64,000 bases of DNA from a bacterium (GTDB lineage Bacteria > Zhuqueibacterota > Zhuqueibacteria > Residuimicrobiales > Krinioviventaceae). Below are positions 26,977-54,477 of the stretch, in pieces (the stretch's first letter is position 1; each line of letters begins with the position of its first letter). A program made the translations under genes and the position numbers. The stretch spans positions 4,544,001 through 4,608,000 of the forward strand of contig OY843751.1 in assembly GCA_963693055.1 (NCBI GenBank). Reading direction: 5' to 3'. The notes beneath the pieces are model-generated. The model worked only from the letters and a program-made list of their open reading frames with translations. It was not told the origin of the DNA and did not search any database.

Positions 26977-27004
26977 CTCCCGTCTGTCCTTTACCGTCTA
27001 CCCT

Positions 27005-27031: not shown

Positions 27032-27032
27032 A

Positions 27033-32050: not shown

Positions 32051-32106
32051 TTTTATCCCTTTTAAATTTATTCAATTGGATATGCCATTCGACTTAAATT
32101 TTTTCT

Positions 32107-32191
32107 AGTTTTCAGTTATCAGTCATATTAAATCATTTAATAAACTCAAAATAGATAGCCACTGAAAACTGCATACTGATAACTGATTACT
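32107..32191. repeat. Inverted heptamer-repeat hairpin (type A)
   Basis: agttttcagttatcagt ... actgaaaactgcatactgataactgattact, directly after the stop of 32193. Confidence 0.8.
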
Positions 32192-32192
32192 C

Positions 32193-34541: not shown

Positions 34542-34604
34542 TATGAGAACCTCAACTATATTAATAACAAAATAACTATAAATATCTACCAGACAGAAAT
34601 CGTA

Positions 34605-36965: not shown

Positions 36966-37017
36966 TACTAAATGTTGTTAGCATCCATCAACTTTTTTTG
37001 GGTTACTCGTTCACCAT

Positions 37018-37043
37018 CGGTTCCTGAGCTTGTCGAAGGACAA
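37018..37043. repeat. REP-like junction element type B (copy 2)
   Basis: cggttcctgagcttgtcgaaggacaa right after the stop of 37046. Confidence 0.6.
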
Positions 37044-37045
37044 CC

Positions 37046-39436
37046 TCACTCATACCTCAATGCATCAACCGGGTTCGCTGTAGCTGCCCTGTAAACCTGC
37101 CCGGCAACAGTCAAAAACGCAATAAACAACGTTACAAACCAGGCCAGGATAAAAATACCAGGTCCGATATTGGTCTTGTAAGCAAAATTTTGCATCCATT
37201 TTATGCTTAAATACCATGCGGCAGGCGTTGCTATCAATACCGCAATATTAAGAAGAATAAAATACTCTTTCGATAGCCCCAAAAGCACATTCCCGATCGA
37301 TGCACCCAAAACTTTTCGAACGCCAATTTCTCTGGTTCGCTGTTCCGTACTAAAAGACACCAATCCGAACAGCCCAATGCTGGCAATAAAAATAGCAAAG
37401 ATTGAAAAAACGGTCATGATCTTGCGGGTTTTCATTTCTGAAAAATACATTTGCGCATAGACATCATCCAAAATGAACCGTTCAAAATCAGCATTGGGTG
37501 CATATTGCGTCCAGATATCTTGCATGAATGAAAACAATTTTTGCATATTTTCAGGCTCACAACGTACCGAAATATAATTCCGAAAATCAGGATTAATTAA
37601 TAAAACAATCCCTTCAACAGCTGAATGCAGGGATTTAAAGTTGAAATCTTTAACAACACCAATCACTCTTCCGGTTCTGTCTTGTAATTCAGGTACTCTG
37701 AATTCTTTACCTACAGCGGTTTCCCATCCCAGTTGTTTTTTCAATTTTTCACTTATTATATATGCATCGGTTTTATCTGTTTCATAATCCCGCGAAAAAT
37801 CACGTCCTTCAATTAATTCAAGTCCGAAAAATTTTAAAAAATCATAATCTACTGCAGTACAGCTCGCAAACCACATTCGGTCATAGGTTTGACCTTCAAA
37901 CTCGAACTGCTTTCCAAAAATACCATTCAGGTTATTGGGACCATAACCGCTAACATCTTTGACCCAGGTTTCCTGCAATAACTGTTGTCGGATTGTCTCA
38001 AAATTGTTCTGTACTTTTGCCGGCATTTTAAAATCAACCACATGCTCTTTGTCAAAACCCAGATTTTTATTTTGCATCCACTGCAATTGTTTATTGATTG
38101 TAAAACTGGTAACAATTAATACCATGGTTATAAAAAACTGGGCAACTACCAAAATACGACGAATATTAAAAAATCCGCTGGCACCAATATCACGGTTCTT
38201 GTTCATGATTGCTTTAGGTGCCGGTTTTGCCAACACCTGTGCAGGATACCAACCGGTTAATAACCCCACAATAAATGTAAGTAATGCCATGTATCCCAAA
38301 ATCTGTATTCGGGTTATACCCAGCATGCCCAATTCATTATCAAACAATCGATTAAATAAAGGCAGTGTGAGTTCAATAATCAGATAGCCAATAAACATCG
38401 CCAGAAATGCAAACAGTAGTGATTCTCCAAAAAATTGTCCCGATATCTGAAATTTTGTTGCACCAATGGCCTTGCGAATGCCTACTTCTCTGGCCCTTCG
38501 CTGAGCTCGCGCGGTTGCGAGATTGATATAATTCATACATGCTATAGCCAATACCAGCAATGCAATTGCAGAAAAGAGATAAATATAGGTAATATCCAGC
38601 TTGCGCCAGTTACGGTCCGCATCAATACTTGAAGAATATAAATGAATTTTCTCCAGGGGTTGCAAAACAAACGACAATCCGTCTTTAACCTCGGCGGGCA
38701 TTATTTTCGAAACCAGTGGAGGCATTTTAGCTTCGAGTTGTTGAATATCTGCACCAGGTGTAATCAGCAAATAGCTCATAAAATCAAGATCGTAATCATG
38801 ATTTTCCATATAACTTTCTAACCAATAGGGATCAAAAGAGCATAATACCTGAAAATTTAAATGAGAATTTCTTGGAGCTTTTTCCAAAACACCGGTTATC
38901 TTGTAATTGGTATCATCACCAGCCCGCACAAATCGCCCTATAGGATTTTCATCGCCAAACAATGCATCTGCGGCTTCAGCAGTAAGAACCAGACTTTTAG
39001 GCTCTACCAGCGCAGTATTGGGATCTCCATATTTAAACTTGTAGCTGAATATCTCAAAAAAATCAGGATCCGCACAATAAAATCCCCAATAGGGTTTAAC
39101 CTTGTCACCATTTCGAACCATAACCGTTTCTTCAACCCGATACATGCGCACAAACTTTTCAATCTCGGGGAACTCTGCCTTTAACTCTGGTGCCATGCGT
39201 CCATTGGTTCCGCCATTGATATGATCATTAATGCCATTCACATGTACATCAAGAACCAGCCTCACCGTTCTGTCTGATTTTTCATGAAAACGATCAAAAG
39301 ATAAATGATAATGAATCCAAATAAAGAGAATCATGCACAGCGCCAATCCCATCGCCAAACCTGTCACATTGATCACAGAATATATTTTTTGCCGAAACAT
39401 ATTCCGAAATGCAGTTTTTATATAATTAATAAACAT
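37046..39436 (-). CDS. MacB/FtsX-type ABC permease, copy 6
   Basis: MFINYIKTAFRNM, ACMNYINLATAR, NPVDALRYE. Confidence 0.93.
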   Translation of the reverse strand: MFINYIKTAFRNMFRQKIYSVINVTGLAMGLALCMILFIWIHYHLSFDRFHEKSDRTVRLVLDVHVNGINDHINGGTNGRMAPELKAEFPEIEKFVRMYRVEETVMVRNGDKVKPYWGFYCADPDFFEIFSYKFKYGDPNTALVEPKSLVLTAEAADALFGDENPIGRFVRAGDDTNYKITGVLEKAPRNSHLNFQVLCSFDPYWLESYMENHDYDLDFMSYLLITPGADIQQLEAKMPPLVSKIMPAEVKDGLSFVLQPLEKIHLYSSSIDADRNWRKLDITYIYLFSAIALLVLAIACMNYINLATARAQRRAREVGIRKAIGATKFQISGQFFGESLLFAFLAMFIGYLIIELTLPLFNRLFDNELGMLGITRIQILGYMALLTFIVGLLTGWYPAQVLAKPAPKAIMNKNRDIGASGFFNIRRILVVAQFFITMVLIVTSFTINKQLQWMQNKNLGFDKEHVVDFKMPAKVQNNFETIRQQLLQETWVKDVSGYGPNNLNGIFGKQFEFEGQTYDRMWFASCTAVDYDFLKFFGLELIEGRDFSRDYETDKTDAYIISEKLKKQLGWETAVGKEFRVPELQDRTGRVIGVVKDFNFKSLHSAVEGIVLLINPDFRNYISVRCEPENMQKLFSFMQDIWTQYAPNADFERFILDDVYAQMYFSEMKTRKIMTVFSIFAIFIASIGLFGLVSFSTEQRTREIGVRKVLGASIGNVLLGLSKEYFILLNIAVLIATPAAWYLSIKWMQNFAYKTNIGPGIFILAWFVTLFIAFLTVAGQVYRAATANPVDALRYE

Positions 39437-39483
39437 ACTTTCTCTTCATTCTGCAGACTTGAATTAATTATCATATTTTTTCA

Positions 39484-39511
39484 GCCTTTAGCTATAAGCT
39501 TATAGCTTATT
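39484..39511. repeat. GCT-type heptamer repeat / palindrome (type C)
   Basis: gccttta-gctataa-gcttata-gcttatt containing the perfect palindrome agctataagcttatagct. Confidence 0.6.
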
Positions 39512-41902
39512 TTATTCATACCTCAACGCGTTGACCGGATCAGCATTTGCCGCTTTGCTCACCTGCCAGGCAATGCTCAACATTGCTATAACAAGCGCTA
39601 TACTGCCGGCTGCAATAAATACCCACCACGGTATACTTGAACGATACGCATAACCTGACAGCCATTTATTCATCACAAACCAACCGGCAGGCCAGGCAAT
39701 CAAATTACTCAGCACCACCCATTTCATGTATTCTGCAGCAAACAGATGCCAGATGCCTGAAACAGATGATCCCAACACCTTGCGAATGCCAATCTCTTTG
39801 GTTTTCTGCTGAATAGAAAAAGACGCCAGACCAAACAATCCCAAACAGGCAATCAACATGGCAAATACAGCAAAACTGTTCAGTAATAGTGCGGACCGCT
39901 CTTCGCCCGCATATACCTGGTCAAGTTTTTCATCCACAAAAGTATAACTAAATGGATAATTATGCCCGTGTTTTTGCCAGGTTTCCTGTATATATGATAT
40001 TGTCTCTTGCATATGATCAGGACGGATTTTAATCAGCAATGTATGATTGTAAAACGGGTGTACAAATATAGCCAATGGTTTAACCGGTGTTTTCAGACTG
40101 CGAAAGTGAAAATCTTTAACCACACCAATAATTTCGCCGCGCTTGCCATAATGTTCAAACCATTTGCTAACCGGTGAATCGGGGCCCATCATTTTCGCGG
40201 CAGATTCATTTATCATATAGGCACCGCCATCCCAATTACTCATATCATTTGCAAATTCTTTAGAGAACGCGCGCCCTTCAACAATCGGAATATCAAAAAC
40301 ATCAAAAAAATCATAATGTACGCTCAGCCAGTTCACTAACTCGGAATCTCCCTCCGGTTTACCCTCCCAGTTGGCAGGTGCCGCTAAAGTTTGCACGTCT
40401 CCGGGAGATTGAAAAGATTGCGTAACGCCCAAAATATTAGGATTCTCAAGCAATTCCGTTTTCAATCCATTATAAAAAGAACCATCTTCCCGATATCCCC
40501 AATGAAGTACCATGGGTATAGAGATTACATTCTTGTGGTTATAACCCACGTCAAAATTCCTGACAAAGCGTAACTGCTGAAATACTACAAATGTACTGAT
40601 AAGAAAAAGGATGGAAAGTGTAAATTGCACTACAACCAGACCCTTGCGAATGCCGGCCCGATTTCCTCCGGGAATAATCTGATTTTTAAGTATTACAACC
40701 GGTCTGAACCTGCTGATAAACAATGCAGGATAAATCCCCGCAGCCAACCCTGTCATCACAGTCAATCCTGCCAAAACTGACCAAAAAAGTGGCTGCCCTT
40801 TTGGTAGATGCGTAAACGTCTTGCCGGAGATATGATTAAACAGAGGCATAATAAACTCTACAAATAGCAAAGATACTATAAACGCCGTCGCAGTAACCAC
40901 AAGTGATTCTAAAACAAACTGAACGATCAACTGACTGCGGTTCGCACCAATCGCTTTTTTCACACCAATCTCCGGTAAACGCCTGCTAAACTGTGCTACG
41001 GACAAGTTCATAAAGTTGATACAGGCAATGACCAGTATCAAAATGGCTATCCCTAAAAAAGTATAAATTTCTTTAATCTCTACTGCAGCGGCGTTCACCG
41101 GTACCGATTCGGGATGCGTATGAATTCCGATAAACGGAAAAATACGCAGCGTTAAATCATCAACCGCATGTTTATGTGCAAAATCTGATATCATGGAAGC
41201 AACTTTTTCCGAGCTTCCCTTTTCATTCAACTGGATATAGGTTGAATTGGCGCCGGGGGTATGCCAGTCCTCCAAAACTGTCGTGTATCGAACCATAAAG
41301 GTATGAATGGGCACCAAAAACTCAAAATCAAACATAGAGTTCCGGGGCAAATCTTTAAGCACTCCTGCTACCTTGAACTCAAATATAGGATCAAACTTTA
41401 AAATCTTTCCAATAGGATCCGTATCACCAAAATACTTTTTCGCCATCTTTTCAGTCAACAAAATATTATCCGGGCCATCAAACATTAGCTGCACATTTCC
41501 CCTCACCAGTGGAAAACTGAACATGCTTAGAAATGTCGAATCCACTCCTAAAGTTTTATCTTCAACAAAATGCTTATCCTCATAACTGACCAGAAAATCA
41601 TCCAGATAATTGACCCGCGTTGCGTTAACAATCTCCGGAATTTCCGTTTTAAGCGCTTCAGCCAATGGCCCCGGAGTTTCAGTATAGGTTTGCACATTAC
41701 CACCTAGATGCTCATCTGCCAGCACGATATACAACGAATCCGCGTTTTCATGAAACCGATCAAAACTGAGCTCATCCGTCACCCAAAGCATAATCAAAAA
41801 ACTTGCTGTCAAACCAATCGCCAAACCCAGAACATTGATCAAAGAAAAGGTTTTATTCTTGAAAAGATTTCTCAACGCAATTTTGAAATAATTTGAAATC
41901 AT
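39512..41902 (-). CDS. MacB/FtsX-type ABC permease, copy 5
   Basis: MISNYFKIALRNL, ACINFMNL, DPVNALRYE. Confidence 0.93.
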   Translation of the reverse strand: MISNYFKIALRNLFKNKTFSLINVLGLAIGLTASFLIMLWVTDELSFDRFHENADSLYIVLADEHLGGNVQTYTETPGPLAEALKTEIPEIVNATRVNYLDDFLVSYEDKHFVEDKTLGVDSTFLSMFSFPLVRGNVQLMFDGPDNILLTEKMAKKYFGDTDPIGKILKFDPIFEFKVAGVLKDLPRNSMFDFEFLVPIHTFMVRYTTVLEDWHTPGANSTYIQLNEKGSSEKVASMISDFAHKHAVDDLTLRIFPFIGIHTHPESVPVNAAAVEIKEIYTFLGIAILILVIACINFMNLSVAQFSRRLPEIGVKKAIGANRSQLIVQFVLESLVVTATAFIVSLLFVEFIMPLFNHISGKTFTHLPKGQPLFWSVLAGLTVMTGLAAGIYPALFISRFRPVVILKNQIIPGGNRAGIRKGLVVVQFTLSILFLISTFVVFQQLRFVRNFDVGYNHKNVISIPMVLHWGYREDGSFYNGLKTELLENPNILGVTQSFQSPGDVQTLAAPANWEGKPEGDSELVNWLSVHYDFFDVFDIPIVEGRAFSKEFANDMSNWDGGAYMINESAAKMMGPDSPVSKWFEHYGKRGEIIGVVKDFHFRSLKTPVKPLAIFVHPFYNHTLLIKIRPDHMQETISYIQETWQKHGHNYPFSYTFVDEKLDQVYAGEERSALLLNSFAVFAMLIACLGLFGLASFSIQQKTKEIGIRKVLGSSVSGIWHLFAAEYMKWVVLSNLIAWPAGWFVMNKWLSGYAYRSSIPWWVFIAAGSIALVIAMLSIAWQVSKAANADPVNALRYE

Positions 41903-41936
41903 TATTTATCCAATTTTCTATGGTCATTCAATTCCA

Positions 41937-42023
41937 AGTCATCAGTAATCAGTCGTCAGTTATCAGTTTAAAAACGACTTGATACATCTTTTACTGAGAA
42001 CTGAATACTGATTACTGACCACT
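41937..42023. repeat. Inverted heptamer-repeat hairpin (type A)
   Basis: agtcatcagtaatcagtcgtcagttatcagt / actgagaactgaatactgattactgaccact. Confidence 0.85.
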
Positions 42024-42025
42024 CT

Positions 42026-44404
42026 TTATTCATACCTCAACGCCTTGACCGGTTCTGCAGTTGCCGCTCGGACCACCTGCCACAGCACGCTTGACAGTGC
42101 AATACCCAACGCTGCTATACCAGCAAAAATAAACATCCACCATTGCAGCGAAATCCGGTATGCATATCCCTCCAACCAGTTATTCAGCAGCCAGAATGCT
42201 ACGGGCCAGGCAATGATATTAGCGACTAGCATACCTTTTATAAGGTCTTTTAACAAATCATATACGATATTAAAAATAGACGCCCCCAGCACTTTACGAA
42301 CACCGGTTTCTTTGGTTTTCTGTTCCGTGGCAAAGGTTACCAGACCCCATATTCCCATACCTGAAATGATCAACGCCAACAATGTAAAAATCTGTACCAA
42401 ACGTCCTGCAACTTCTTCGGCATGATACAACCGCTCAAAACTCTCATCCAGAAAAAAGTACTCAAAGGGTTTATCGGGATAAAACGCAGTCCAGGTTTCT
42501 TTTACGGCACTCAGCAATCCGTCCAGGTCCCGGGTATCCACATTCAATGTCAAATGACCGAATTTGGAGGGCATGATCTGCACCAGCAAGGGATCAATTT
42601 TATATTGCGCGCCAAGATAATTATAATCTTTGATTACACCCACAACCTCCAGCTCGCGCTGGTCCATACCTTCTTTAATATGCTTACCGAGGGCTTCTGT
42701 TGCGTTGCTCCAGCCAAAAGCAGACAATGCAGCCTGATTTACCAGGCAGGCGTTCTGCTCGTCGCTGGTTATACTTTTATCAAAACTTCGTCCCGCAATT
42801 ATTTGAATATCATACAGGGATTGAAAATCCGTATCCCAAAAGGCATAATACACCATTTGCGATTTATCATCACTCTGCCCAATAACTGATGTCATCATAC
42901 TGCCCGCGCCTTGCCCCGGAACCGATGCGGAAGCGGTTGCCCCAAGCACATCCGGAATGCGCTCAAAACCGGACTTTAACGTTTCATAATTTCTCTCCAT
43001 AGCCCTTATCCCCTGCACAGGGATCACCAGCTTTTGTTTTTGATCGAATCCCGCATCCCGATTCTTCATGTAACGGATTTGCCCCCCTACCACCAGTGTA
43101 CCAATAATTAACAGCACTGAAACAGCAAATTGAAAAGTCACCAATACCCGGCGGATACCAAATCCACTACTGTTTTTCATCATCCCCCCTTTGATCAAGG
43201 TTATGGGTTTATATGATGAAATCAGCAAAGAAGGATAAATACCAATCAACATTCCGGTTACAATCATCATTGATAACACAAAAGCACAATTTTCAAGTGT
43301 AATCAAATCAAAAACATGAATATTTACAGATAAAAAGAATCGAAACATGGGCAGCAGACCCAATACAGCAATCAACGCCAAAACCAACGAGATCATTAAC
43401 AACAAAAATGACTCGAGGAAAAATTGAATGGCAAGCTGAATTCTATCTGCACCCACAACCCGACGTACCGTAATTTCCTTGCCTCGTTTTACTGCCCGCG
43501 CTGTGGTCAAATTGATATAGTTAAACATGGCTGTAAACAGTACCAGTAATCCAATCCCGCCAAACAGATATAAACGTTTCACATTTCCGGTAGCGGTAAA
43601 TTCATACTCTAAACCGGAATAGAGATAAATATCTCGTATTGGCTGCAAAATATACGAATAACGGTTTTCACCCGATGGATCGCGTGTGGTATGTGTTTCT
43701 GCAAATCTGGCAAGTGCCTGACTAAAATCCTCAGGATTCACCTGAGCACGCAGTTTGATATAGGTATAGATACCCGGCCAGTTCCAGTCCTGCATCCACG
43801 GCAGCCGGTCCAGTTGATGTATAGAAACAAACATATTGTACGGTAAATGGGTTTGTTTTGGTGCGTCTTCCAATACCGCAGATACGGTATAATCCCGTCT
43901 ATCCACTTTTAACACTTTACCAATCGGATCACCGTCCCCAAAATATTTCGCAGCAATAGACTTTGTGATTACAATGGAATTCAGATCATTTAAAGCAGTT
44001 TCCGCATTTCCTGAAACCAACGGTAACGTCAATACCTGAAAAACAGATGGATCCGCGTACAGCATCAGGTCTTCATAAAAGGTCTTGCTTTCATATTTTA
44101 CATATACCCGATTAAAAAAGCTCATCACCCTTGTACTAGCTTCAACCTGCGGGAATTGCTCCTTTAAAGCGGGACCCAACGGTGGTACATTCAACGCATA
44201 ATCACGATCAGAGGCATCATTTTCAATGCTCAATCCCAAACGGTAAATCCTGTCTGCGTCCTTATGATACCGGTCATACCCGGTTTCATTACTGATATAT
44301 AGATAAATAAAGACTACCGTAACCAGTCCCAACGCCAATCCCAGGATATTAATGCCGGAAGAGGTCTTGTTTTTCATCAAATTTCTGGATAACATTTTAA
44401 TCAT
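42026..44404 (-). CDS. MacB/FtsX-type ABC permease, copy 4
   Basis: AMFNYINLTTAR, KTKETGVRKVLGAS, EPVKALRYE. Confidence 0.92.
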   Translation of the reverse strand: MIKMLSRNLMKNKTSSGINILGLALGLVTVVFIYLYISNETGYDRYHKDADRIYRLGLSIENDASDRDYALNVPPLGPALKEQFPQVEASTRVMSFFNRVYVKYESKTFYEDLMLYADPSVFQVLTLPLVSGNAETALNDLNSIVITKSIAAKYFGDGDPIGKVLKVDRRDYTVSAVLEDAPKQTHLPYNMFVSIHQLDRLPWMQDWNWPGIYTYIKLRAQVNPEDFSQALARFAETHTTRDPSGENRYSYILQPIRDIYLYSGLEYEFTATGNVKRLYLFGGIGLLVLFTAMFNYINLTTARAVKRGKEITVRRVVGADRIQLAIQFFLESFLLLMISLVLALIAVLGLLPMFRFFLSVNIHVFDLITLENCAFVLSMMIVTGMLIGIYPSLLISSYKPITLIKGGMMKNSSGFGIRRVLVTFQFAVSVLLIIGTLVVGGQIRYMKNRDAGFDQKQKLVIPVQGIRAMERNYETLKSGFERIPDVLGATASASVPGQGAGSMMTSVIGQSDDKSQMVYYAFWDTDFQSLYDIQIIAGRSFDKSITSDEQNACLVNQAALSAFGWSNATEALGKHIKEGMDQRELEVVGVIKDYNYLGAQYKIDPLLVQIMPSKFGHLTLNVDTRDLDGLLSAVKETWTAFYPDKPFEYFFLDESFERLYHAEEVAGRLVQIFTLLALIISGMGIWGLVTFATEQKTKETGVRKVLGASIFNIVYDLLKDLIKGMLVANIIAWPVAFWLLNNWLEGYAYRISLQWWMFIFAGIAALGIALSSVLWQVVRAATAEPVKALRYE

Positions 44405-44429
44405 TTTCGATTCTTCACTCCTGTTTTTT

Positions 44430-44486
44430 GCTTATAGCTAATAGCTGAAAGCAGCTCATCTCACATTTCACGTCTCACGTCTGACG
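44430..44486. repeat. Two adjacent heptamer tracts (GCT-type and TCTCACG-type)
   Basis: gcttata-gctaata-gctgaaa-gc, then atctcac-atttcac-gtctcac-gtctgac-g abutting the stop of 44487. Confidence 0.65.
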
Positions 44487-46823
44487 TTACTCATACCTCA
44501 ACGTTTTTACAGGATCCATCGTTGCGACTTTGAGGGTTTGCCAGCTTGTGGTGAATACAGCAATTCCTAAAGCCATAAATCCTGCCAGTACGAATATCCA
44601 AAATTGCAAATCAATACGATACGCATAATTCTGCAGCCACTTGTTCATCATGTACCAGGTTAGCGGCCAGGCGATAATATTTGCCGCCAATACCCAGCGT
44701 GCAAAATCACTTGTCATTAAAAGGATGATTCCCGATACCGGCGCACCTAAAACTTTACGGATGCCAATTTCCTTGGTGCGTTGTTCAGCGGTAAACATGG
44801 ACAAGCCCAGCAATCCCAAGCCCGCAATAACCAGAGCAAGCGCTGTAAAACTGTTGATTACATTTTCAACTTTTTGATCAGCTTTATAATAATCATTAAT
44901 TTCTTCATCTATAAAACTGTACTCAAATGGATCATCAGGGACCAGAGTCTTCCAGAGGGACTCTATTTCATTGATTGTACTGTTCAAACCCGTGGGTTCT
45001 ACTCGTACTATTAAAAATCTTGTATTTTCTGCTTTATTATTGATCATTAACGGACCAATCTTTTCGTGTAGTGAACGAAAATTAAAATCCTTTACAACCC
45101 CAATAACCGTTCGATCACCAACCCGCTTACCCACAGCATCATCAAATCCCATCATTTTCATGGCAGCTTCATTGATCACCAGGCTTGAGGAAGAATCAGA
45201 CGGAAACTCGCGCGAGAAAAAACGTCCCTGTACCATCTGCATTTCAAGGGTACTCACCATATCATTATCCGCAGATAATATATGGATCAGGAAATTCTCT
45301 TCACCTCTTCGCTCTTCCCAGTCATCCATAACGATAGAATGCCCAAGATATGAAGGTGAATACGAAACCCCACTCGCGCTCGTTACAAAACGGCATCCCT
45401 CTATCTCTCTTTTCAATAATTCAATTTGGGTTGCCGGTTTATTTTGCAAATCTATCAATAAAACATTTCTCTGATTATACCCAAGTTTATGGTTACGCAT
45501 ATAATGCAGCTGCTGATTTATTACCATTGAACTGGCAATCAAAACAATGGTTATAACAAACTGAAATGAAACCAACACCCGGCGAAAAGCTTTACCTTTT
45601 AACCCAAATCCCGATTTAGCTTTCAATACTTTAACCGGATTAAATGATGACATAAAGAATGCAGGATAACTACCGGATATCACTCCGGTCAAAAACGCGA
45701 TCAATATAAATCCAATCAATATCCTGACATCCTGGATTATCCTGATTGATAATTGTTTACCGGAAATCATTTCAAAAACAGGCATGAACAGTTTCAATAA
45801 CACCAGGGAGATCAGAAAAGCAGTAAACGTGTAAATCAGTGTCTCGCCCATAAACTGCATTACCAAATCTTTTTTCCCGGCCCCTATCACTTTGCGCAGC
45901 CCCACCTCCATTGAACGGTTACCTGCTCTCGCGGTGCTCAGATTCATAAAATTGATACATGCCAGCAACAACACAATCACAGCCAATATTGAAAAAATAT
46001 AAATATATCGTATATCCCCATTACCGCCCATACCCCACATGGTCCCGGATCTCAAATGGATATCGGTCAATGGCTGCAAGGACAGATCAACAAGCGCATC
46101 TTTAAACCGGTCTTTAATAATGGGTTTAATTTTTTCATCAACAACGCTTTCGTCAATTCCATCTTTCAGCTTGACAAATGTAGAGAACGCGTAATAATTC
46201 CAATTCTCTTTGGGTTCTCCAAAGTTGTCAATGGATTCAAAAGGAATAATAAACTTGAAACTATGGATTGTATTAGAGGGCAGTGTTTTCAAAACACCGG
46301 TAACTTTATAATCATGTTTACTGTCAATACGCAGTGTCTTTCCCAAAGCGTCAACAGTGCCAAAATACTTTATTGCCATGGGCTCTGTCAATAGAATTGA
46401 CATGGGTTCAGTTAATGCATTCTCAGGTGTTCCGCTTGCAAATCCAAAACTGAAATAGTCGAAAAAATTCTGATCAGCACACAAGATCCGTGTTTCGTTG
46501 AATTGCTTGTCTTCATATTGTAACACATGCTTCCCAATGGATTTCATGCGCAGAGCACTCTGAATTTCAGGATAATCCGTGGCAAGTAATGGTCCAAGGT
46601 CTGGTGGATTGGTTGAAAACAACAAAACCTCTCCGTTTGAATAAGTTTCAATATCGATTACCCGGTAGATTTTCTCCGCATCGTCATGAAACCGGTCAAA
46701 GCTTAACTCATCCTGCACCCATAATAAAATAAATAACGCGCAAACCATACCCAGCGCCAATCCCAGAATGTTGATTGTAGAATGGATTTTATTTTTTAAT
46801 AATTGCCTGATTATAATCTTCAT
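44487..46823 (-). CDS. MacB/FtsX-type ABC permease, copy 3
   Basis: ACINFMNLSTAR, RTKEIGIRKVLGA, DPVKTLRYE. Confidence 0.92.
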   Translation of the reverse strand: MKIIIRQLLKNKIHSTINILGLALGMVCALFILLWVQDELSFDRFHDDAEKIYRVIDIETYSNGEVLLFSTNPPDLGPLLATDYPEIQSALRMKSIGKHVLQYEDKQFNETRILCADQNFFDYFSFGFASGTPENALTEPMSILLTEPMAIKYFGTVDALGKTLRIDSKHDYKVTGVLKTLPSNTIHSFKFIIPFESIDNFGEPKENWNYYAFSTFVKLKDGIDESVVDEKIKPIIKDRFKDALVDLSLQPLTDIHLRSGTMWGMGGNGDIRYIYIFSILAVIVLLLACINFMNLSTARAGNRSMEVGLRKVIGAGKKDLVMQFMGETLIYTFTAFLISLVLLKLFMPVFEMISGKQLSIRIIQDVRILIGFILIAFLTGVISGSYPAFFMSSFNPVKVLKAKSGFGLKGKAFRRVLVSFQFVITIVLIASSMVINQQLHYMRNHKLGYNQRNVLLIDLQNKPATQIELLKREIEGCRFVTSASGVSYSPSYLGHSIVMDDWEERRGEENFLIHILSADNDMVSTLEMQMVQGRFFSREFPSDSSSSLVINEAAMKMMGFDDAVGKRVGDRTVIGVVKDFNFRSLHEKIGPLMINNKAENTRFLIVRVEPTGLNSTINEIESLWKTLVPDDPFEYSFIDEEINDYYKADQKVENVINSFTALALVIAGLGLLGLSMFTAEQRTKEIGIRKVLGAPVSGIILLMTSDFARWVLAANIIAWPLTWYMMNKWLQNYAYRIDLQFWIFVLAGFMALGIAVFTTSWQTLKVATMDPVKTLRYE

Positions 46824-46842
46824 TTTATACCTTTTTTATTCT

Positions 46843-46919
46843 GGTTTTCAGTAATCAGTTGGCAGTTTACAGTAACAAGTTCCGTTTTACTGATAACTGA
46901 ATACTGATAACCGTCAACT
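46843..46919. repeat. Inverted heptamer-repeat hairpin (type A)
   Basis: ggttttcagtaatcagttggcagtttacagt-aacaagttccgtttt-actgataactgaatactgataaccgtcaact. Confidence 0.85.
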
Positions 46920-49289
46920 TTATTCATACCTCAACGCCTTTACCGGATCAGCCGTTGCCGCTTTAATCACCTGCAAACTCACGGTCAGCATGGCAATCAA
47001 AAGCGCTGCGGCACCTGCCAGCAAAAACGGCCATACGGTAATATTAATCCGGTAAGCAAAATTCTCTAACCATTTATGCATAGCATACCAGGCTATGGGC
47101 CAGGAAATCACACTGGAAATCAGAATACGATTTATAAATCCACCCAGCAATAATCTGAGAATACTGCTCAATGAAGCGCCCAGCACTTTACGTACACCAA
47201 TCTCTTTGGTGCGTTTTTCAGCCATAAACGAGGCAAATCCAAACAGTCCCAGGCACGAGATAAATATGGCAAATACGGTAAATCCGTTAAAAAGGAGTTT
47301 GATCCGCTGTTCCAATTGATACATGCGTTCATATCGTTCATCCAAAAAGCTGTATTCCAGGGGATATCCTGTCACGCGTCTGTCCCAAACACTTTTAATT
47401 GACCGGACACTCTCATCGATCCTGTCACCGGTTCGTACCAAAAGAGTGAATCCCATAGCGCTGATGGGCTCTTCTGTCATGGGTAAAAATACTTGTGGTT
47501 CCACGCTTTTATGCAGCGAGTGAAAATTGGCATCTTTGATCACACCCACAATAGTTCTCGGATTGTCATTTCCATAAACCGTGATCGTTTTCCCGATGGG
47601 GTCTGTTATACCCATCCGGCTCAAACCGGTTTCATTGATAATAACCGAGTTATTCACATCTCCGGGATGTTCCAATGAAAAACTCCTGCCAAACAAAAGC
47701 GCTACATTCAGGTCCGATAAATAGGATTCGTTGATCCAGTTGACCTCCCACAATACATCCTCATCCGGGTCGTTGCCCTGCCAGTTCACGGATTGGGTGG
47801 CACGGGCTATATGCTCGGGAGAACAGTTTTTCACAGCCACACCGGCAATTCCGGGTTGACGCAGCAGTTCATCCCGCATGGATTCATAATCCACATCAAC
47901 ACCCCGGTTTACTTCCACACACAATACATTATCTTTATTGAAACCCAAAGATTTGTTCTGCAGAAAATGTACCTGCTCATTTACAACCAGCATTCCGGTT
48001 ATTAATGCAATAGACAGGGAAAACTGAACAATAGTGAGTATATGACGGAACCCAAAAGTTTTTCCCGCTTGAATTTTTTGTTTAAATGCCCCTTGCGGCT
48101 TGATCGCTGAAAGATAAAACGCGGGATATGCTCCCGCAATCAATGCGGTAACAATCAAAATGCCCACCAACGAGAACAAGAACCTCGGATCGACCAGATT
48201 CAATGCACATACAGAACTTGATAATTTTGCATAAATGGGACATCCTATAACTGCAAGTCCCAGTGCAAGGATAAATGCTGCAAATGTAATCAGAAACGAT
48301 TCACCCATAAACTGCATTACAATATCTTTTCTGGCTGCTCCCATCACCTTTTTCAAACCGATCTCTTTGGCGCGATTGGTAAACCGGGCTGTGGATATGC
48401 TCATATAGTTGATACAGGCTATGAGCAAAATGAAAACAGCAATGACAGAAAATATATAAATATAATTTCGGTTCACGTTGGTACTGTCATCATTGAACAA
48501 GCCAGGCTCTAGATGTATAGATTGTAACGGCTGTAATTCAAAACTCTTGTTTGTATTCGGATTCGAATTATTCTTCTTATACAACGCGGTAATATTACCG
48601 GCTACCGCCTGGGGGTCGGATTGCTCATCTATCAATACATATGTATATGTGGGGAACCGGTTCCAGCGTGTCAGCAGATCGTTACGTTTTTCAGCCGCTT
48701 CAAAAGAAGTCAGAAAACGGAATCCCATATGCGAGTTTTCCGGCCAATCCTTTATAACCGCTGAAACGGTCATCAATTGATCATTCACCTCTAGCTGTCG
48801 GTTGAGCGGATATTGATCGCCAAAATATTTTTTTGCCGCGCTTTCCGTAAAAACAATCCTGCCCGGAGCAGATAATGCATTTCGGGCATCACCAGCTAAA
48901 AACTCGACTGAAAAAATATCAAAAAAGGACGGGTCAGCTACCGCCACCCCATTTTCAAACATGGCTTCATTATTATAACGAAACAATGTATTAACCCCGC
49001 TCCTGAACCGCGTTGCATTTACCACCTGCGGCAATTCTTGTTCAAGCTCAGGCGCCATTGGACCGGGAGTAGAAGCCCATTTTGCAGCATCATCATGAAA
49101 ATCAGCTATCACCCGGTAAACCCGTTCCGATTTTTCATTAAATGCGTCATACCCTAACTCATGCTGCACCCACTGTAAAATAAATATCACACAGGCCAAA
49201 CTCACCGCCAGCCCGGTTATATTTAAAATGGAGTATTGTTTATGTTTTAACAAATTTCGTATCGCAATTTTCAGATAATTAATTAACAT
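46920..49289 (-). CDS. MacB/FtsX-type ABC permease, copy 2
   Basis: MLINYLKIAIRNL, ACINYMSISTAR, DPVKALRYE. Confidence 0.93.
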   Translation of the reverse strand: MLINYLKIAIRNLLKHKQYSILNITGLAVSLACVIFILQWVQHELGYDAFNEKSERVYRVIADFHDDAAKWASTPGPMAPELEQELPQVVNATRFRSGVNTLFRYNNEAMFENGVAVADPSFFDIFSVEFLAGDARNALSAPGRIVFTESAAKKYFGDQYPLNRQLEVNDQLMTVSAVIKDWPENSHMGFRFLTSFEAAEKRNDLLTRWNRFPTYTYVLIDEQSDPQAVAGNITALYKKNNSNPNTNKSFELQPLQSIHLEPGLFNDDSTNVNRNYIYIFSVIAVFILLIACINYMSISTARFTNRAKEIGLKKVMGAARKDIVMQFMGESFLITFAAFILALGLAVIGCPIYAKLSSSVCALNLVDPRFLFSLVGILIVTALIAGAYPAFYLSAIKPQGAFKQKIQAGKTFGFRHILTIVQFSLSIALITGMLVVNEQVHFLQNKSLGFNKDNVLCVEVNRGVDVDYESMRDELLRQPGIAGVAVKNCSPEHIARATQSVNWQGNDPDEDVLWEVNWINESYLSDLNVALLFGRSFSLEHPGDVNNSVIINETGLSRMGITDPIGKTITVYGNDNPRTIVGVIKDANFHSLHKSVEPQVFLPMTEEPISAMGFTLLVRTGDRIDESVRSIKSVWDRRVTGYPLEYSFLDERYERMYQLEQRIKLLFNGFTVFAIFISCLGLFGFASFMAEKRTKEIGVRKVLGASLSSILRLLLGGFINRILISSVISWPIAWYAMHKWLENFAYRINITVWPFLLAGAAALLIAMLTVSLQVIKAATADPVKALRYE

Positions 49290-49351
49290 TGAATTTCCTG
49301 GAATATTGAAAACACTCTATTTTTATCTATACTAAATTATTATTTATATCT

Positions 49352-49429
49352 AGTCATCAGTAATCAGTCGTCAGTTTACAGCAACAAGTTCCGTTATTAC
49401 TGATAACTGAATACTGACAACCGAAAACT
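49352..49429. repeat. Inverted heptamer-repeat hairpin (type A), near-identical to 46843-46919
   Basis: agtcatcagtaatcagtcgtcagtttacagc-aacaagttccgttatt-actgataactgaatactgacaaccgaaaact. Confidence 0.85.
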
Positions 49430-51742
49430 TTATTCATACCTCAACGCCTCTACCGGATTCGCCGTAGCGGTTTTGATTACCTGCCAGCTTGTGGTCAGTA
49501 GAGCAATGGACAAAGCTGCAATACCCGAGATGGCAAATATCCACCAGCCCAACTCAGTACGATACGCAAAACTCTCAAGCCACTTGTTCATGATATACCA
49601 GCTCATCGGTACAGCGATAACAAATGCAATAACGGTCCATTTCAGCATATCCCGGTTCAGCAGGGCTGTTATCTCCCGCACTGATGCACCATTCACTTTG
49701 CGAATGCCTACCTCTTTGGCGCGACGTCGGGTCGTAAACTGCACCACACCAAAGGTACCCATAGCTGTAATCAGCAGGGCAATTACAGAAAAAATCCGGA
49801 TTGCGAATCCCAGTCTTTCTTCAGATTTATACATGGCATCATACCATTCGTCATAAAAAGAATATTCTAATACAAATTCAGGACAAACCTCATCCCAAAC
49901 ATTCTGGATATAATCCAAAGTGCCTGAAATATTTTCAGGAGCAATTCTCAGAGACAGCCAGGTATAATAGCTATCCTGATTATAAATAAAAAACGCGGGT
50001 TCAAGAGATTTGTACATACTCTCCGTATGAAAATCCTTAACGACTCCAATCACATCATTACCATTAATCTTTTTGTCCACAATTGAATTCCAGTTCACCA
50101 ATTTCCTGGCAGATTCATTAATGATAATGACATTGTTTTTCTCTGTTTCAATAAAATTTCTACCCTCAATGACCGAAATATCAAAAACATTGAAAAAATC
50201 CGTATCTACCATAAAAGTGGATACACTTTCTTTCCAGGTTCCCGCATCATACGCTTCATTCCATCCGTTTCCCATATATACTGCACCGGGACCGCTGTTT
50301 GAACAGGTCACATGATAAATTTGCGGAGATTCTGCAATTTTCTGTTTCAACAAGGGCAGTTTATCCTTGATCCGCCATGACACTTCAATCTTGACCAGGC
50401 AATCCTTGTCAAATCCCCAATCCATATTTTTAACATGCTTCATCTGAAGACTGATCACGATCAGCGCCGTGATCAGGATAATACTTACGGTATACTGCAC
50501 AGTCAGTAATCCCGCCTTGATCTTGAGCGCATTCCCATCAACATTGCGAAACATGGAGAGAACCGAGTAACGCGACGCCAGTATCGCGGGAAACAATCCT
50601 GCCAGTACCGAAATAAAAATCAACCCCGCAGGGATCAACAGGACCGTGGGCATCGAGTAAATATAATTCATATCAAAGGACTTGTTGACAATAGACTCAA
50701 ACACCGGTTTGGTCAAACCGGACAATAAAATAGCTGCCAAAAGTGATATGGCGCCAATCATTACAGATTCCAGAATAAATTGAAAAAATATAGTTTTACA
50801 ACCAGCGCCGACGGTCTTTTTAGTGCCAATCTCTTTGATCCGGGTCATATATTGTGCTGTAAACAAAACAATAAAATTTAAAATCGAGATTAAAAGAACC
50901 AACAGGGCAATTGCTCCCAAAATACGGATCAATCGCAAATTGGCGTGCATTAAATGGCTGCTGTCCCGGGCATCACTGAAATACGAATCTTTTAGAGACA
51001 TCAGATGGACCGGGTTATCCACCATATCATGATCAATTAAATGCGCGGACAATTTTCCATTAACTGCCGAAACATCACTGCCAGGCTCAAGCAGTACAAA
51101 ATAACGGTTAAAATATATTGTCTCACCATCATTTGTATAGCTGTTGACAACTGTTTTCAGGTCTCTGTGAATTATGGCTTTTGGCTGAAGACTGGAATTT
51201 CCAGGCAAGGATTTAATCACTGCACTCACGGTTAGATCATTTTTATGATATACCGTTAACGGTTCTCCAACAGGATTCCGTTCACCAAACAGTTTTTGTG
51301 CAATTTCTTCAGTCAAAATGATGGAATTTATATCGCTCAGAGCTGTCTCTTTGTTACCATATACAAAATCCACATCAAAAATATCAAAGAATGATGGTTC
51401 GGTATGCAGAATTTGATTGACCTTGAACGAATGCAGATCATGGGTCAATGCACCCCGGAAATTGATAAAATAGTTATATCGGCATACCTGTTCAATTTCA
51501 GGGAAATCATGGGTCAGATAATCAATTGCATCTTCGTTAATATCACTCTTGTCACCGTCTTTGATTATCCGATAAATACGGTCGACTTTGCTAAAAGCCC
51601 GGTCATAAGACAATTCATTAAATACAAAAGCGGATAACAGCAGGACCACTGTCAGGCTCAGTGTAAATCCTGATATGGTAATAACCGAGAATGTCTTGTT
51701 CCTGATCAAATTTCTATAAAACAACCGAAAAAAATGGATCAT
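49430..51742 (-). CDS. MacB/FtsX-type ABC permease, copy 1
   Basis: Start MIHFFRLFYRNL after a GGGAG RBS; RAKEVGIRKVNGAS, NPVEALRYE. Confidence 0.92.
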   Translation of the reverse strand: MIHFFRLFYRNLIRNKTFSVITISGFTLSLTVVLLLSAFVFNELSYDRAFSKVDRIYRIIKDGDKSDINEDAIDYLTHDFPEIEQVCRYNYFINFRGALTHDLHSFKVNQILHTEPSFFDIFDVDFVYGNKETALSDINSIILTEEIAQKLFGERNPVGEPLTVYHKNDLTVSAVIKSLPGNSSLQPKAIIHRDLKTVVNSYTNDGETIYFNRYFVLLEPGSDVSAVNGKLSAHLIDHDMVDNPVHLMSLKDSYFSDARDSSHLMHANLRLIRILGAIALLVLLISILNFIVLFTAQYMTRIKEIGTKKTVGAGCKTIFFQFILESVMIGAISLLAAILLSGLTKPVFESIVNKSFDMNYIYSMPTVLLIPAGLIFISVLAGLFPAILASRYSVLSMFRNVDGNALKIKAGLLTVQYTVSIILITALIVISLQMKHVKNMDWGFDKDCLVKIEVSWRIKDKLPLLKQKIAESPQIYHVTCSNSGPGAVYMGNGWNEAYDAGTWKESVSTFMVDTDFFNVFDISVIEGRNFIETEKNNVIIINESARKLVNWNSIVDKKINGNDVIGVVKDFHTESMYKSLEPAFFIYNQDSYYTWLSLRIAPENISGTLDYIQNVWDEVCPEFVLEYSFYDEWYDAMYKSEERLGFAIRIFSVIALLITAMGTFGVVQFTTRRRAKEVGIRKVNGASVREITALLNRDMLKWTVIAFVIAVPMSWYIMNKWLESFAYRTELGWWIFAISGIAALSIALLTTSWQVIKTATANPVEALRYE

Positions 51743-51815
51743 CATTACTCCCAAAATCAATCAATATACCAAATCAACGCACCTGTTCTTTAAATCATCA
51801 TTATTTACCAACCAT

Positions 51816-51910: not shown

Positions 51911-52600
51911 TTATACATGAAACTGGTTCTGCATATTTTCTGTCACTACCTTGCCGTCGAACAAGTGCACAATACGATTACTGAATTCCGCGTACGTTGG
52001 CGAGTGGGTTACCATTACAATAGTGGTGCCTTTATCATTCAGCTCGGTGAGAATACTCATCACTTCGTCACCATGACGTGAATCGAGATTACCGGTCGGT
52101 TCATCCGCGAGGATCACTTTGGGATCTGCTACAACCGCACGCGCAACCGCCACACGCTGTTGCTGACCACCGGACAACTGCTGCGGAAAGTGGTTTTTAC
52201 GATGCATGATCTGCATGTATTCCATGGCATGCTCTACACGCTCTTTGCGCTCTTTGGCCGGGACTTTCATATACAGCAGCGGCAGTTCAATGTTCTCAAA
52301 TACTGTCAACTCATCGATCAGATTAAACGATTGAAAGATGAATCCAATATTGCCTTTCCGCAGATTGGCGCGCTGACGTTCGTTGTATTTGGCAACATTC
52401 TCACCATTGAAAAAATAATCACCATCATCAATGGTATCAATCAGCCCAATCACATTCAACAGTGTCGATTTGCCACACCCTGACGGCCCCATTATGGCCA
52501 CAAACTCGCCTTCATTGGCCTGAAAATTAATATTATTCAGCGCCGTTGTCTCAATCTCATCTGTACGATAGACTTTGTTAAGATTTGTTGTTTTGATCAT
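51911..52600 (-). CDS. ABC transporter ATP-binding protein (MacB/LolD type)
   Basis: [33 protein letters not shown]. Confidence 0.95.
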   Translation of the reverse strand: MIKTTNLNKVYRTDEIETTALNNINFQANEGEFVAIMGPSGCGKSTLLNVIGLIDTIDDGDYFFNGENVAKYNERQRANLRKGNIGFIFQSFNLIDELTVFENIELPLLYMKVPAKERKERVEHAMEYMQIMHRKNHFPQQLSGGQQQRVAVARAVVADPKVILADEPTGNLDSRHGDEVMSILTELNDKGTTIVMVTHSPTYAEFSNRIVHLFDGKVVTENMQNQFHV

Positions 52601-52665
52601 TGTTGTGTCCTTTATAAATATTTGCTACATGATTTCTATTTTAATTAAATTTATTGATTCCCAAT

Positions 52666-52695
52666 AGTATTCAGTACTCAGTTTTCAGTATTCAG
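52666..52695. repeat. Heptamer arm downstream of the four-helix-bundle gene
   Basis: agtattc-agtactc-agttttc-agtattc-ag, complementary in register to the (CTGACAA)6 tract. Confidence 0.8.
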
Positions 52696-52705
52696 AAAAA
52701 GCAGG

Positions 52706-53071
52706 TTATTCTTTTTGAGATTTTACTTTCTTGATCAAAGATGTTAACATCCGTTTTATTTCCTGAATCTGTTTTGTCAATTCGTTAAATAAATCAACAT
52801 CAATATATTCCAGGTCATTAGATAACATGATCTGATATTCCAATTCGCTGGCTGATCCCATCGCTATAAACAGAAATCGATTAAAATCAGATTTACTGCT
52901 ACGACAACACCCTTCAGCAATATTCGATGGAATTGACACTGCACATCTTCGTATTTGACTCGTTAAACCAAACATCTCTTCCTTGGGATAATTCTTTGTA
53001 ACTTTATAAATTTTCAATACCATCAAATGACTCTTTTCCCATACTACCAACTTTTTAAAATCCTGCATCAT
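52706..53071 (-). CDS. Four-helix-bundle protein (23S rRNA intervening-sequence protein / Avd-like family)
   Basis: FKKLVVWEKS, YPKEEMFGLTSQIRRCAVSIPSNIAEG, FLFIAMGSASELEYQ signature; GGAGG RBS. Confidence 0.9.
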   Translation of the reverse strand: MMQDFKKLVVWEKSHLMVLKIYKVTKNYPKEEMFGLTSQIRRCAVSIPSNIAEGCCRSSKSDFNRFLFIAMGSASELEYQIMLSNDLEYIDVDLFNELTKQIQEIKRMLTSLIKKVKSQKE

Positions 53072-53127
53072 TTTCCTCCGAGTTATTTATCTACTCCTGA
53101 ATCCTGACTTCTGGCTGATAGTTTTTT

Positions 53128-53169
53128 CTGACAACTGACAACTGACAACTGACAACTGACAACTGACAA
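53128..53169. repeat. Perfect tandem heptamer (CTGACAA)6 upstream of the four-helix-bundle gene
   Basis: Six exact copies; degenerate copies (cctgaat-cctgact-tctggct) at ~53096-53116. Confidence 0.95.
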
Positions 53170-53226
53170 CACTAAAAAAAGATAATAATTATATTCAAGC
53201 ATTCCTTTTAGTTTAAATGCATATTA

Positions 53227-54477
53227 CTATTTAAGAACCAACACATCAATATCCCCAAACGTCTCATATGATGAAGTAATGACATTTTCGCCCGGCTCCA
53301 GACCTTCAAGCACTTCATAATCACGGGTGTTTTGGCGGCCAATCCGGATGTCACGCTTGCGTGCGGTGCTGCCGTCATCATCAACCACATACACCCATTG
53401 CCCGCCGGTAGAACTGTAAAATCCGCCTGTAGCCAGCAAGAGTGCTTCCGAAAGATCGCCCAGTGCCAATCGGATATGTACCGTCTGACCACGACGAATG
53501 CCTTCCGGTTCAGCTCCTACAAATTCCATATCCACTTCAAAACGCCCTTCAAGCACTTCGGGATATATTTTTTTGATTACAAGCTTGTGGTCCTTTCCCG
53601 CAAAAGTAAACTCGCCGGTCTGTCCGGGTGAAATACGTGCAATATAATGCTCATCTACCTGCACCCGGATCTTGAATCCATCCAGTACATCAATCTGCCC
53701 CAGTCGCTCCCCACGGGTCTTGGATTCCCCAATCTCGGCATTCAGGGATGTTAAATTTCCGGTAATGGGTGCGCGTAGTGTCAGATTTTCCATATTCTGC
53801 TTTACCAGATCAAGGTTATCTTCCATGCGATTTAACGATGCTTCCAGTTGCAGTACCTGCGACTCACGATACAACGAATCCTGCTTGTGCGAGGCCAGGG
53901 TAAGTTCGCGTTTTTTGGCAAGATACTCGTAATTGTCCCGCGCTTCCTCAAACTCTTTATCAGATATCAACTTTTTATCCAACAGTTCCTGTGCACGATC
54001 AAAAGCGCGCTTTTGCATTTTTAAACTGTAATCCAGTTCCAGCAGTTGGGCCTGCAGACTGAGACGTTTCTCTTCCATGCTCAAACGGGTATTACGCAGA
54101 TTATTGCTCTGTGCAAAAAGCTCCGCTTCACGATACATAATATCCATGATCAGATCCGTATTGGTAAGCTGCAATATGCTGTCGCCTTTTTGTACAAAGG
54201 TACCCGCTTCCAGAAACTTTGTCTCCACACGACCGCCTTCAATAGCATCCAGATATATGGTAGTAATTGGAATCACCGTGCCCGTCACCGGAATAAATTC
54301 CTGAAACTTGTCTTGTCTTACGGTGGATATGGTAATACGCTCGGCCTGAACATTCAGCCGCGAACTGTGATCGCTGAACAGCAATTGGTACAAAACAAAT
54401 ATAATAAATACTCCGCCCGCAGCAGTCATTGCAATTTTCTTTGGCGGCCACTTTTTCTTTTGAATTACTCGATCCAT
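53227..54477 (-). CDS. Periplasmic adaptor / membrane fusion protein (HlyD/MacA family)
   Basis: Single N-terminal TM helix, lipoyl-like IEGGRVE..VQKGD, coiled-coil hairpin, LRAPITG, GLEPGENVI. Confidence 0.92.
   Translation of the reverse strand: MDRVIQKKKWPPKKIAMTAAGGVFIIFVLYQLLFSDHSSRLNVQAERITISTVRQDKFQEFIPVTGTVIPITTIYLDAIEGGRVETKFLEAGTFVQKGDSILQLTNTDLIMDIMYREAELFAQSNNLRNTRLSMEEKRLSLQAQLLELDYSLKMQKRAFDRAQELLDKKLISDKEFEEARDNYEYLAKKRELTLASHKQDSLYRESQVLQLEASLNRMEDNLDLVKQNMENLTLRAPITGNLTSLNAEIGESKTRGERLGQIDVLDGFKIRVQVDEHYIARISPGQTGEFTFAGKDHKLVIKKIYPEVLEGRFEVDMEFVGAEPEGIRRGQTVHIRLALGDLSEALLLATGGFYSSTGGQWVYVVDDDGSTARKRDIRIGRQNTRDYEVLEGLEPGENVITSSYETFGDIDVLVLK

Follow-up and report, generated by a model that had tools for sequence, protein, structure and literature searches.

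A minus-strand operon in the 64,000-nt window of bacterial DNA analysed here carries 11 tandem permease genes, and the junctions behind two of them, 46920 and 49430, share a nearly identical tract of gene end and hairpin although the two proteins are highly divergent. We refer to these junctions as A (behind 46920) and B (behind 49430); coordinates are those of the window, and the genome that contains it (6,535,007 bases) is the study genome, G000. The identity of the two junctions, the mosaic makeup of A, the differing cassette content of G001 (the only congener in our set of genomes of the order) and a sharing of gene tips that is restricted to the tips and to near neighbours were all observed. 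These observations are consistent with local homologous recombination between neighbouring junctions, which may have copied the B-type hairpin core onto A around the time of the species split, a reading to which we assign a probability of about 0.52.

Transcription runs through 49430, junction B, 46920, junction A, 44487, 42026 and junction C in that order (Table 1). BLAST of gene plus spacer aligned A with B as a single tract with 94 of 102 columns identical (92.2%). The tract takes in the final 28 nt of the gene and the 73 nt that follow, and 66 of the 73 columns in the non-coding portion were identical. An initial annotation of this DNA had reported near-identical junctions of about 95 bp behind these two genes and was correct in this. 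It had also reported a 25-bp arm identical at 49352 and 41937, and the 25-nt arm at junction C (41937-41961) does equal the arm in B exactly, with only these 2 copies in the genome at up to 1 mismatch. The longest match among the 1366 other arm pairs was 22 nt, one local triplicate apart. The annotation placed a non-repetitive loop within the match; the core does match, but most of it is stem extension and the predicted loop of B is only 6 nt. With up to 1 mismatch allowed, a 15-mer spanning the loop occurred twice in the genome, in A and in B, while a 15-mer centred on B gave 1 additional, unrelated match. A pattern for the 23/24-nt core was present in 2 of the 43 genomes of the order, twice in G000 and once in G001. 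A dispersed element carrying this core was rejected as there was no third copy in the genome. The last 27 nt of 46920 differ from 49430 at 1 position, from 42026 at 1 and from 39512 at 2, and over the last 60 nt the pair 46920/49430 (83%) ties with 46920/39512. The 27 coding nt are therefore not specific to the A/B pair and the evidence rests on the hairpin core.

The proteins encoded by 46920 and 49430 were 31% identical, and their four-fold sites were 30% identical over 87 codons, saturated like those of all pairs among the 11 permeases (19-40% identity). In a tree of the gene bodies (48 proteins) each grouped with its own G001 orthologue and not with the other, so the two were rejected as closest paralogues. 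The proteins are thus clearly dissimilar, as the annotation had stated, and its exclusion of a simple tandem duplication was upheld by the 31% identity, the saturated four-fold sites and the body tree. Outside the array the genome contained no further full-length permease paralogue. Logan contigs of two sequencing runs (labelled X1 and X2, not to be confused with the cassettes X1 and X2 below) covered 39000-53157 in one piece with 0 differences. Both runs come from one sample, perhaps the one used for the genome assembly, and the contigs are built from short reads; on this match an assembly artefact was rejected.

Comparison with G001 showed how the two junctions are related. G001 carries orthologues of nine array permeases on one contig (89-96% amino acid identity) together with four extra cassettes, X1-X4, that are found only in G001, and gene 27033 is found only in G000, its place being taken by X4 in G001. 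The assembly of G001 breaks within the array (C2/C3 boundary), between the second ATPase and the last permease, and its cassette count is therefore a lower bound. B is present in both species, with 1 difference over the 78-nt hairpin, and is the one copy of the core in G001; the core of A is found only in G000. In G001 the 46920 orthologue (92%) is followed by X1, X2 and then a hairpin unlike A. This G001 junction lies upstream of the 44487 orthologue. It agrees with A in its flanks, namely at 6 of the first 7 nt, at the right end and in the 44487 leader, and its best match in G000 is A, but the middle of A matches B and not the G001 junction. With the flanks of the same-position G001 junction and a core of B type, A is a mosaic. 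The core of that G001 hairpin had no second copy in G000 or G001. The last 27 nt of 46920 have 1 difference to G000 49430 and 4 to their own G001 orthologue. Several other spacers between orthologous gene pairs were partly or wholly replaced in G001 (32051-32192, 79% identical; 44405-44486, 58%; 41903-42025, 73% with many gaps), and in 32051-32192 the flanks were kept and the hairpin core was different.

The age of the copy was estimated with a spacer clock over 440 kb of G001, in which 99 orthologous spacers were scored and the 89 without heptamers were used. Identity between G000 and G001 in these heptamer-free spacers had a median of 93% (quartiles 88-96%, n=89), and four-fold sites differed at 27% (266 genes). 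As A and B are 90% identical, the copy dates from about the time of the species split and is not fresh. The annotation had proposed that the junctions were copied much more recently than the genes diverged; they were copied long after that divergence, but they are not young. A copy made after the split requires one event fewer than an earlier one, and the greater closeness of the last 27 nt of 46920 to G000 49430 than to the G001 orthologue also speaks for a later date. G001 remains the only close relative, as the order contains one congener and the metagenome loci (80 kept of 277 scanned) included none above 48% identity.

Sharing of gene tips was then evaluated across related arrays, with 231 of 247 permeases from relatives and the 80 metagenome loci aligned; 16 were dropped because they were shorter than 2100 nt or, in one case, had a mis-called start. 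Nine redundant loci were dropped before the window, neighbour and distance counts, and BLAST rows at 100% identity were ignored as spacer overlaps with the next gene. G001 cassette X1 (L012, C3) is 34% identical in amino acids to the 46920 orthologue upstream of it, and their last 183 nt are 96.7% identical with no shared hairpin. From about -184 to -55 this tract holds 1 difference, so the X1 copy is younger than the A/B copy. In G004 two genes are 97.8% identical over the last 180 nt, again with no hairpin included, and this non-adjacent pair is closer than a pair at 88%. Each of these two tracts begins close to the AWY codons and runs up to the stop. At a further locus, L095, an A/B-like pattern was seen at 31% body identity.

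In 453 same-locus pairs with bodies less than 55% identical, 30-codon windows of at least 85% identity were confined to the final three positions (9, 7 and 1 cases), with none at the remaining 23, while 4000 sampled between-genome pairs yielded 1. Two internal motifs equal the tip in between-genome conservation yet showed no tracts. Counted by locus, the last three 20-codon windows gave 15, 4 and 6 of 44 loci and the N-terminus 1. Of 179 tips, 49-56 had their nearest non-orthologue within their own locus or genome; the corresponding figures, again of 179, were 10-21 for other windows and 13 for bodies, and random draws gave 5.0. Both the tip neighbours and the tracts thus reveal a nucleotide block whose history is unlike that of the gene body. 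Tip sharing fell with distance, from 14 of 134 adjacent pairs through 7 of 91 and 2 of 60 to 0 of 168 at four or more genes apart. It was seen in 0 of 64 pairs across contigs of one genome and in 59 of 20,878 between genomes. The decay with distance and the absence across contigs rule out genome-wide codon habits. Spacer sharing (score of at least 30) was found in 11 of 357 same-locus pairs compared to 0 of 3870.

We propose that the conserved gene tip (the NPVxALRYE codons) would serve as the left anchor of the exchange and the right heptamer arm as the right anchor, both putative short homologies. Junction A could then be a product of gene conversion; alternatively, the tips may have undergone an unequal crossover, after which the DNA between right arms was deleted. 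Crossovers at the tips would persist, with whole genes added, removed or swapped, while those at equally conserved internal motifs would yield chimeric transporters and might be filtered out by selection. Repeated rounds would homogenise the tips and so favour further exchange, and a dedicated recombinase would not be required. Repeated crossovers that give apparent conversion were modelled in PMC2568036, and blocks at gene ends drive tipC exchange in PMC9484751, according to the parts of these papers available to us.

Several points weigh against this reading. The internal motifs are equally conserved between genomes, and so homology alone fails to explain the 3' polarity. N-terminal ends, where crossovers would also spare whole genes, showed little sharing (21 of 179). 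Same-locus pairs are not independent, which is why counts were also given by locus. Among the contig joints listed none linked A to B, and no recombinant molecule was seen in the contigs, the only material searched. Finally, the differences in the 67-column core split 4 on A, 1 on G000 B and 0 on G001 B. On a strict clock this split favours a copy made before the species split by about 8 to 1 (hand calculation), so that it leans toward an earlier date and fits a duplication on insertion equally well.

Such a duplication, in which 46920 would have entered behind 49430 before the split and left tip plus hairpin on both sides, is possible but in our view unlikely. Entry would have been by ends-in recombination of a circle or by gap repair, and G001 would later have gained X1 and X2 at the 46920 tip, with the core of A replaced. 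The 4:1:0 split and the spacer clock permit this date. No relative outside the genus and none of the 80 metagenome loci matched 46920 over its length at more than about 40%, so the gene may have arrived late. X1, which G000 lacks, sits between two copies of one 183-nt tip, hairpin cores were often replaced between the two species and insertions that duplicate permease tips exist in the family. The annotation had suggested looking for a relative that lacks the 46920 cassette and has a single junction copy. G001 has a single copy, but it keeps 46920 (92% amino acid identity) plus two more cassettes; the 80 metagenome loci included no closer relative, and no empty site was found. The insertion would also need one more event, the loss of A's core in G001, and it leaves unexplained both the 25-nt arm common to B and C, three genes away and absent from G001, and the closer non-adjacent pair in G004. 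The cassette holds one permease open reading frame, and no transposase or integrase was found in it or near the array, with PF00589 searched and other recombinase families not. Target-site duplication and gene conversion had both been offered by the annotation; the mosaic structure of A fits conversion at least as well, and two genomes do not separate them. Its interpretation of the junction copying is thus partly supported. A different account, which we consider improbable, is that the hairpins behind the stop codons are cut or mobilised by a machinery of their own and that repair or homing copies hairpin plus gene tip, the heptamer hairpins being likely emptied four-helix-bundle cassettes. 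It predicts a gradient from the stop codon, and the tracts do decay inward from it. The crowding of heptamer arms in the array and behind stop codons, the four-helix-bundle cassette at the array head that differs between species with its arms, and the palindrome-bearing tip copies of other genomes, often with inverted end copies as linkers (all described below), also speak for it, and hairpin-specific single-stranded DNA nucleases exist, as reported in the accessible part of PMC11893778. Yet the two sharpest tip tracts, in G001 and G004, end at the stop with no hairpin in common, the arrays of G000 and G001 contain no orphan tip, the SRM motif had 0 matches in the window and all 5 GIY-YIG matches lie at least 150 kb from the array. 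A stronger form of this account, which we would not expect to hold, makes the stop-codon junction an actively triggered, one-directional exchange site at which hairpin elements start breaks or homing and copy hairpin and tip onto neighbours. If it were true, whole permeases would be added or swapped without an integrase, A/B would have captured a heptamer hairpin in a homing event, and the arrays would be a natural recorder of the movement of hairpin elements such as emptied four-helix-bundle cassettes and GIY-YIG-type palindromes.

It is very unlikely that nothing was copied between the sites and that the likeness reflects two insertions of one dispersed repeat, selection on RNA structure or on a ribosome-binding-like tip, chance or mis-assembly. 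The arms do belong to a dispersed low-complexity family. In addition, all 9 array genes with Arg in LRYE (window 27033-49430) use AGG, which makes up 7.5% of Arg codons genome-wide, and AGG in the LRYE tip makes a Shine-Dalgarno-like word; one gene in G001 starts 1 nt behind the stop of such an AGG tip. However, the tip Arg codon varies between arrays (CGT in G017, AGA in L108), the core is unique to the two sites, neither genome contains the G001 junction core a second time, sharing declines as genes lie further apart and was not seen across contigs of a single genome, and the read-derived contigs are identical to the window, so that this explanation is largely refuted. We give very little credence to a dedicated shuffling system, whether integron-like site-specific recombination or retrohoming of the kind seen in diversity-generating retroelements (DGRs) with an Avd-like four-helix-bundle protein. 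The cassette-like layout, the hairpins after several genes, the 3'-end polarity and, within the operon, a weak match to Avd (36.5 bits against a cut-off of 80) recall such systems. In an integron array an integrase lies alongside, and every gene is followed by an attC-like site of a single family. Here the spacers are of many kinds, several without a hairpin, tract ends vary, the nearest of 7 tyrosine recombinases (PF00589) in the genome is about 200 kb off and no junction matched an Rfam family; an integron was rejected on the mixed spacers, the lack of a nearby integrase and the lack of an Rfam match. A DGR has a DGR-type reverse transcriptase and a template repeat/variable repeat pair that differs at adenines. 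The only reverse transcriptase in the genome is retron-like with a PRTase effector and lies about 120 kb away, and differences in the tracts also involve bases other than adenine, with mixed substitutions in the nine pairs examined, and a DGR was likewise rejected. The retron-like locus (L134, C1 4,444,361-4,446,950) consists of a PRTase-CE/wHTH effector, a 175-nt spacer and the reverse transcriptase, whose best match was retron St85, below the cut-off.

The hairpin arms are degenerate 7-mers of the TAACTGA family, paired as inverted arms. The genome contained 54 such arms compared to 2 in one shuffle, and 50 of the 54 were intergenic, so that intergenic tandem 7-mers occur above chance as in the TAACTGA-type repeats. 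A left arm followed by a right arm within 600 nt accounted for 9 of 21 cases, and the opposite order for 1 of 32. The 32-kb array holds 11 of the 54 arms (0.26 expected), and 21 of the 54 start within 25 nt behind a stop codon. The predicted RNA fold of B reached -33.4 kcal/mol (z -6.9) and that of A -24.3 kcal/mol, and none of 200 shuffles was as stable. At the head of the array the four-helix-bundle gene is 61% identical to the gene at the same place in G001, while its neighbours are 98-99% identical, and the arms of the cassette differ in type between the species (ACTG vs AGCT). This cassette was swapped between the two species. Elsewhere in G000 (C1 2,797,375-2,798,370) three near-identical copies of one heptamer arm plus flanks, with a 50-nt exact match, lie within 1 kb. 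A second hairpin family, resembling repetitive extragenic palindromes, occurs directly behind genes 37046 and 27033 (window 36966-37045 and 26794-27032), and its 11-nt core word is present 8 times in the genome.

Relatives of the study genome carried additional tip copies. Extra tip-like matches were found in 10 loci, 15 of 36 of them within 255 nt behind a real stop codon; the G000 and G001 arrays had no orphan tips, and the reverse strand gave 1 match in 905 kb. Scanning species genomes yielded 66 tip copies with a palindrome. In 57 cases the copy followed an intact permease end, and some of the 66 repeat junctions of the 10-locus search. The pattern demanded an EALRYE/ESLRYE copy and so cannot show what else such palindromes hit. 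In many cases the linker repeats the final codons of its gene in inverted orientation; the stem averaged 6.5, compared to a mean of 4.1 and a maximum of 4.5 over 500 shuffles. A first pattern for the palindromic element had 0 matches in 2 genomes; a second found 7 copies in one of these, of which 4 were at permease ends of one array, two of them with nearly the same multi-tip junction. From the orphan tips it follows that insertions with duplication also take place at the tip, so that the insertion idea of the initial annotation stays viable at the family level. Just behind intact gene ends, small ATCC...GGAT palindromes preceded a repeat of the final seven permease codons, and G017 has five consecutive 51-nt copies. 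These palindrome-tip modules were absent from the study window.

The array resembles several described systems, which we compare here on the parts of the cited papers available to us. Like S. aureus lpl (Tsuru and Kobayashi 2008, PMC2568036) and esaG/tipC (Garrett et al. 2022, PMC9484751) it consists of tandem divergent paralogues, in this case 11 genes at 25-38% amino acid identity, with a conserved nucleotide block, and it shares with them gene gain, loss and substitution between close relatives, apparent conversion and no dedicated recombinase. The block is the 3' tip plus a non-coding hairpin here, while it is central in lpl and at both ends in tipC; the paralogues here are also only about 30% identical, and their equally conserved internal motifs lack tracts. 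The clusters of ADOP permeases (TIGR03434), such as the 42-kb cluster of Psychroflexus torquis (PMC3914696), likewise have about ten paralogues in a row, each of about 800 amino acids with two MacB_PCD/FtsX halves. Both 46920 and 49430 matched Pfam MacB_PCD twice and FtsX twice, which is the duplicated ADOP architecture, but their TIGR03434 scores (295.5 and 189.8 bits) were under the curated cut-off of 622.3. They are also not orphans (no cognate ATPase or adaptor nearby, a criterion taken from the family name), as the array has an adaptor and two ATPases. Junction exchange is not discussed in the portion of PMC3914696 available. The TAACTGA heptamer repeats (MacGregor 2015, PMC4679880) belong to the same 7-nt unit family and are intergenic and strain-specific; that paper describes near-identical repeat-bearing spacers beside similar open reading frames in Elizabethkingia and suggests a role in rearrangement. 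In contrast, the repeats here are degenerate, form inverted paired arms and lie just behind stop codons, not before start codons. Displacement of Rhs C-termini (Jackson et al. 2009, PMC2935791) also proceeds by homologous recombination at the 3' parts of genes and leaves orphan tips, a likeness seen in relatives' arrays and not in the study window. However, the Rhs tips are the variable part, whereas the permease tips are the conserved part and grow more alike. Ssn/SRM hairpin repeats (Chenal et al. 2025, PMC11893778) are likewise hairpins clustered beside membrane-protein genes with a suggested effect on recombination. The window lacks the SRM motif (10 matches in the genome) and the array lacks a small GIY-YIG gene, and these repeats were rejected as the identity of the hairpins. 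An Ssn-like layout was seen at C1 about 5,147,300-5,148,050, where a small GIY-YIG gene is flanked on both sides by tandem hairpin repeats.

Permease clusters, recombination at conserved blocks of tandem paralogues and Rhs tip displacement are thus already known, and we found no publication on tip exchange in these permease arrays in a mostly open-access literature searched without supplements. The A/B pair is a real footprint of local recombination, a known kind of process, and tip sharing across the arrays has a strict 3'-end polarity. It provides a route by which arrays of at least ten export permeases that are about 30% alike could gain, lose and swap whole genes, by means of the last 20-60 codons and the hairpins. 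For annotation, gene tips in such arrays mislead trees, and such repeats are not transposon footprints. As the internal motifs are equally conserved and never shared, there is either selection against chimeric permeases or a source of breaks at the stop codon, and the latter would give a handle on the spread of heptamer hairpins.

The operon begins with a periplasmic adaptor, followed by the four-helix-bundle gene, an ABC ATPase and the permeases (about 800 amino acids each); a second ATPase sits before the last permease.

Table 1. Location of the junction features, the genes around them and the palindrome-tip modules of other genomes
Feature	Position in window (or locus)	Strand	Remarks
Shared tract, copy A	46848..46948	-	Last 28 nt of permease 46920 plus heptamer-arm hairpin
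Shared tract, copy B (likely donor)	49357..49458	-	Last 28 nt of permease 49430 plus heptamer-arm hairpin
Non-repeat core of hairpin A	46874..46886	-	In G000 only here and in B
Non-repeat core of hairpin B	49383..49395	-	One copy in G001
First 7 nt of spacer A	46913..46919	-	6/7 vs G001 junction upstream of 44487 orthologue, 5/7 vs B
Right flank of A (right-arm end and leader of 44487)	46829..46852	-	Common to the G001 junction, not B
Junction C, heptamer hairpin after permease 42026	41903..42025	-	Core unlike B; other spacer in G001
Array of 11 permeases	23694..51760	-	25-38% identical; second ATPase at 26110-26793
Operon head	51911..54477	-	Periplasmic adaptor 53227-54477, ABC ATPase 51911-52600
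Four-helix-bundle (23S rRNA IVP family) gene 52706-53071 between inverted heptamer arms	52670..53167	-	
Permease 49430, first in array	49430..51760	-	Duplicated MacB/FtsX-type; 31% identical to 46920
Permease 46920, between B and A	46920..49289	-	Duplicated MacB/FtsX-type, ADOP-like, 789 amino acids
Permease 44487, downstream of junction A	44487..46823	-	G001 orthologue at 94%
Palindrome-tip modules	L138-L203; G005, G014, G017, L045, L059, L086, L094		Bacteroidota, Ignavibacteria, KSB1, Kryptonia and others

Two further repeats were observed in the window. Four copies of a unit of about 90 nt (16774-17117), one pair of which is 97% identical, lie just upstream of an rRNA operon (11435-16544). 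At 58682-64000 two tandem genes for large secreted proteins are 74-80% identical in DNA, and the first has a C-terminal match of the type IX secretion system type.

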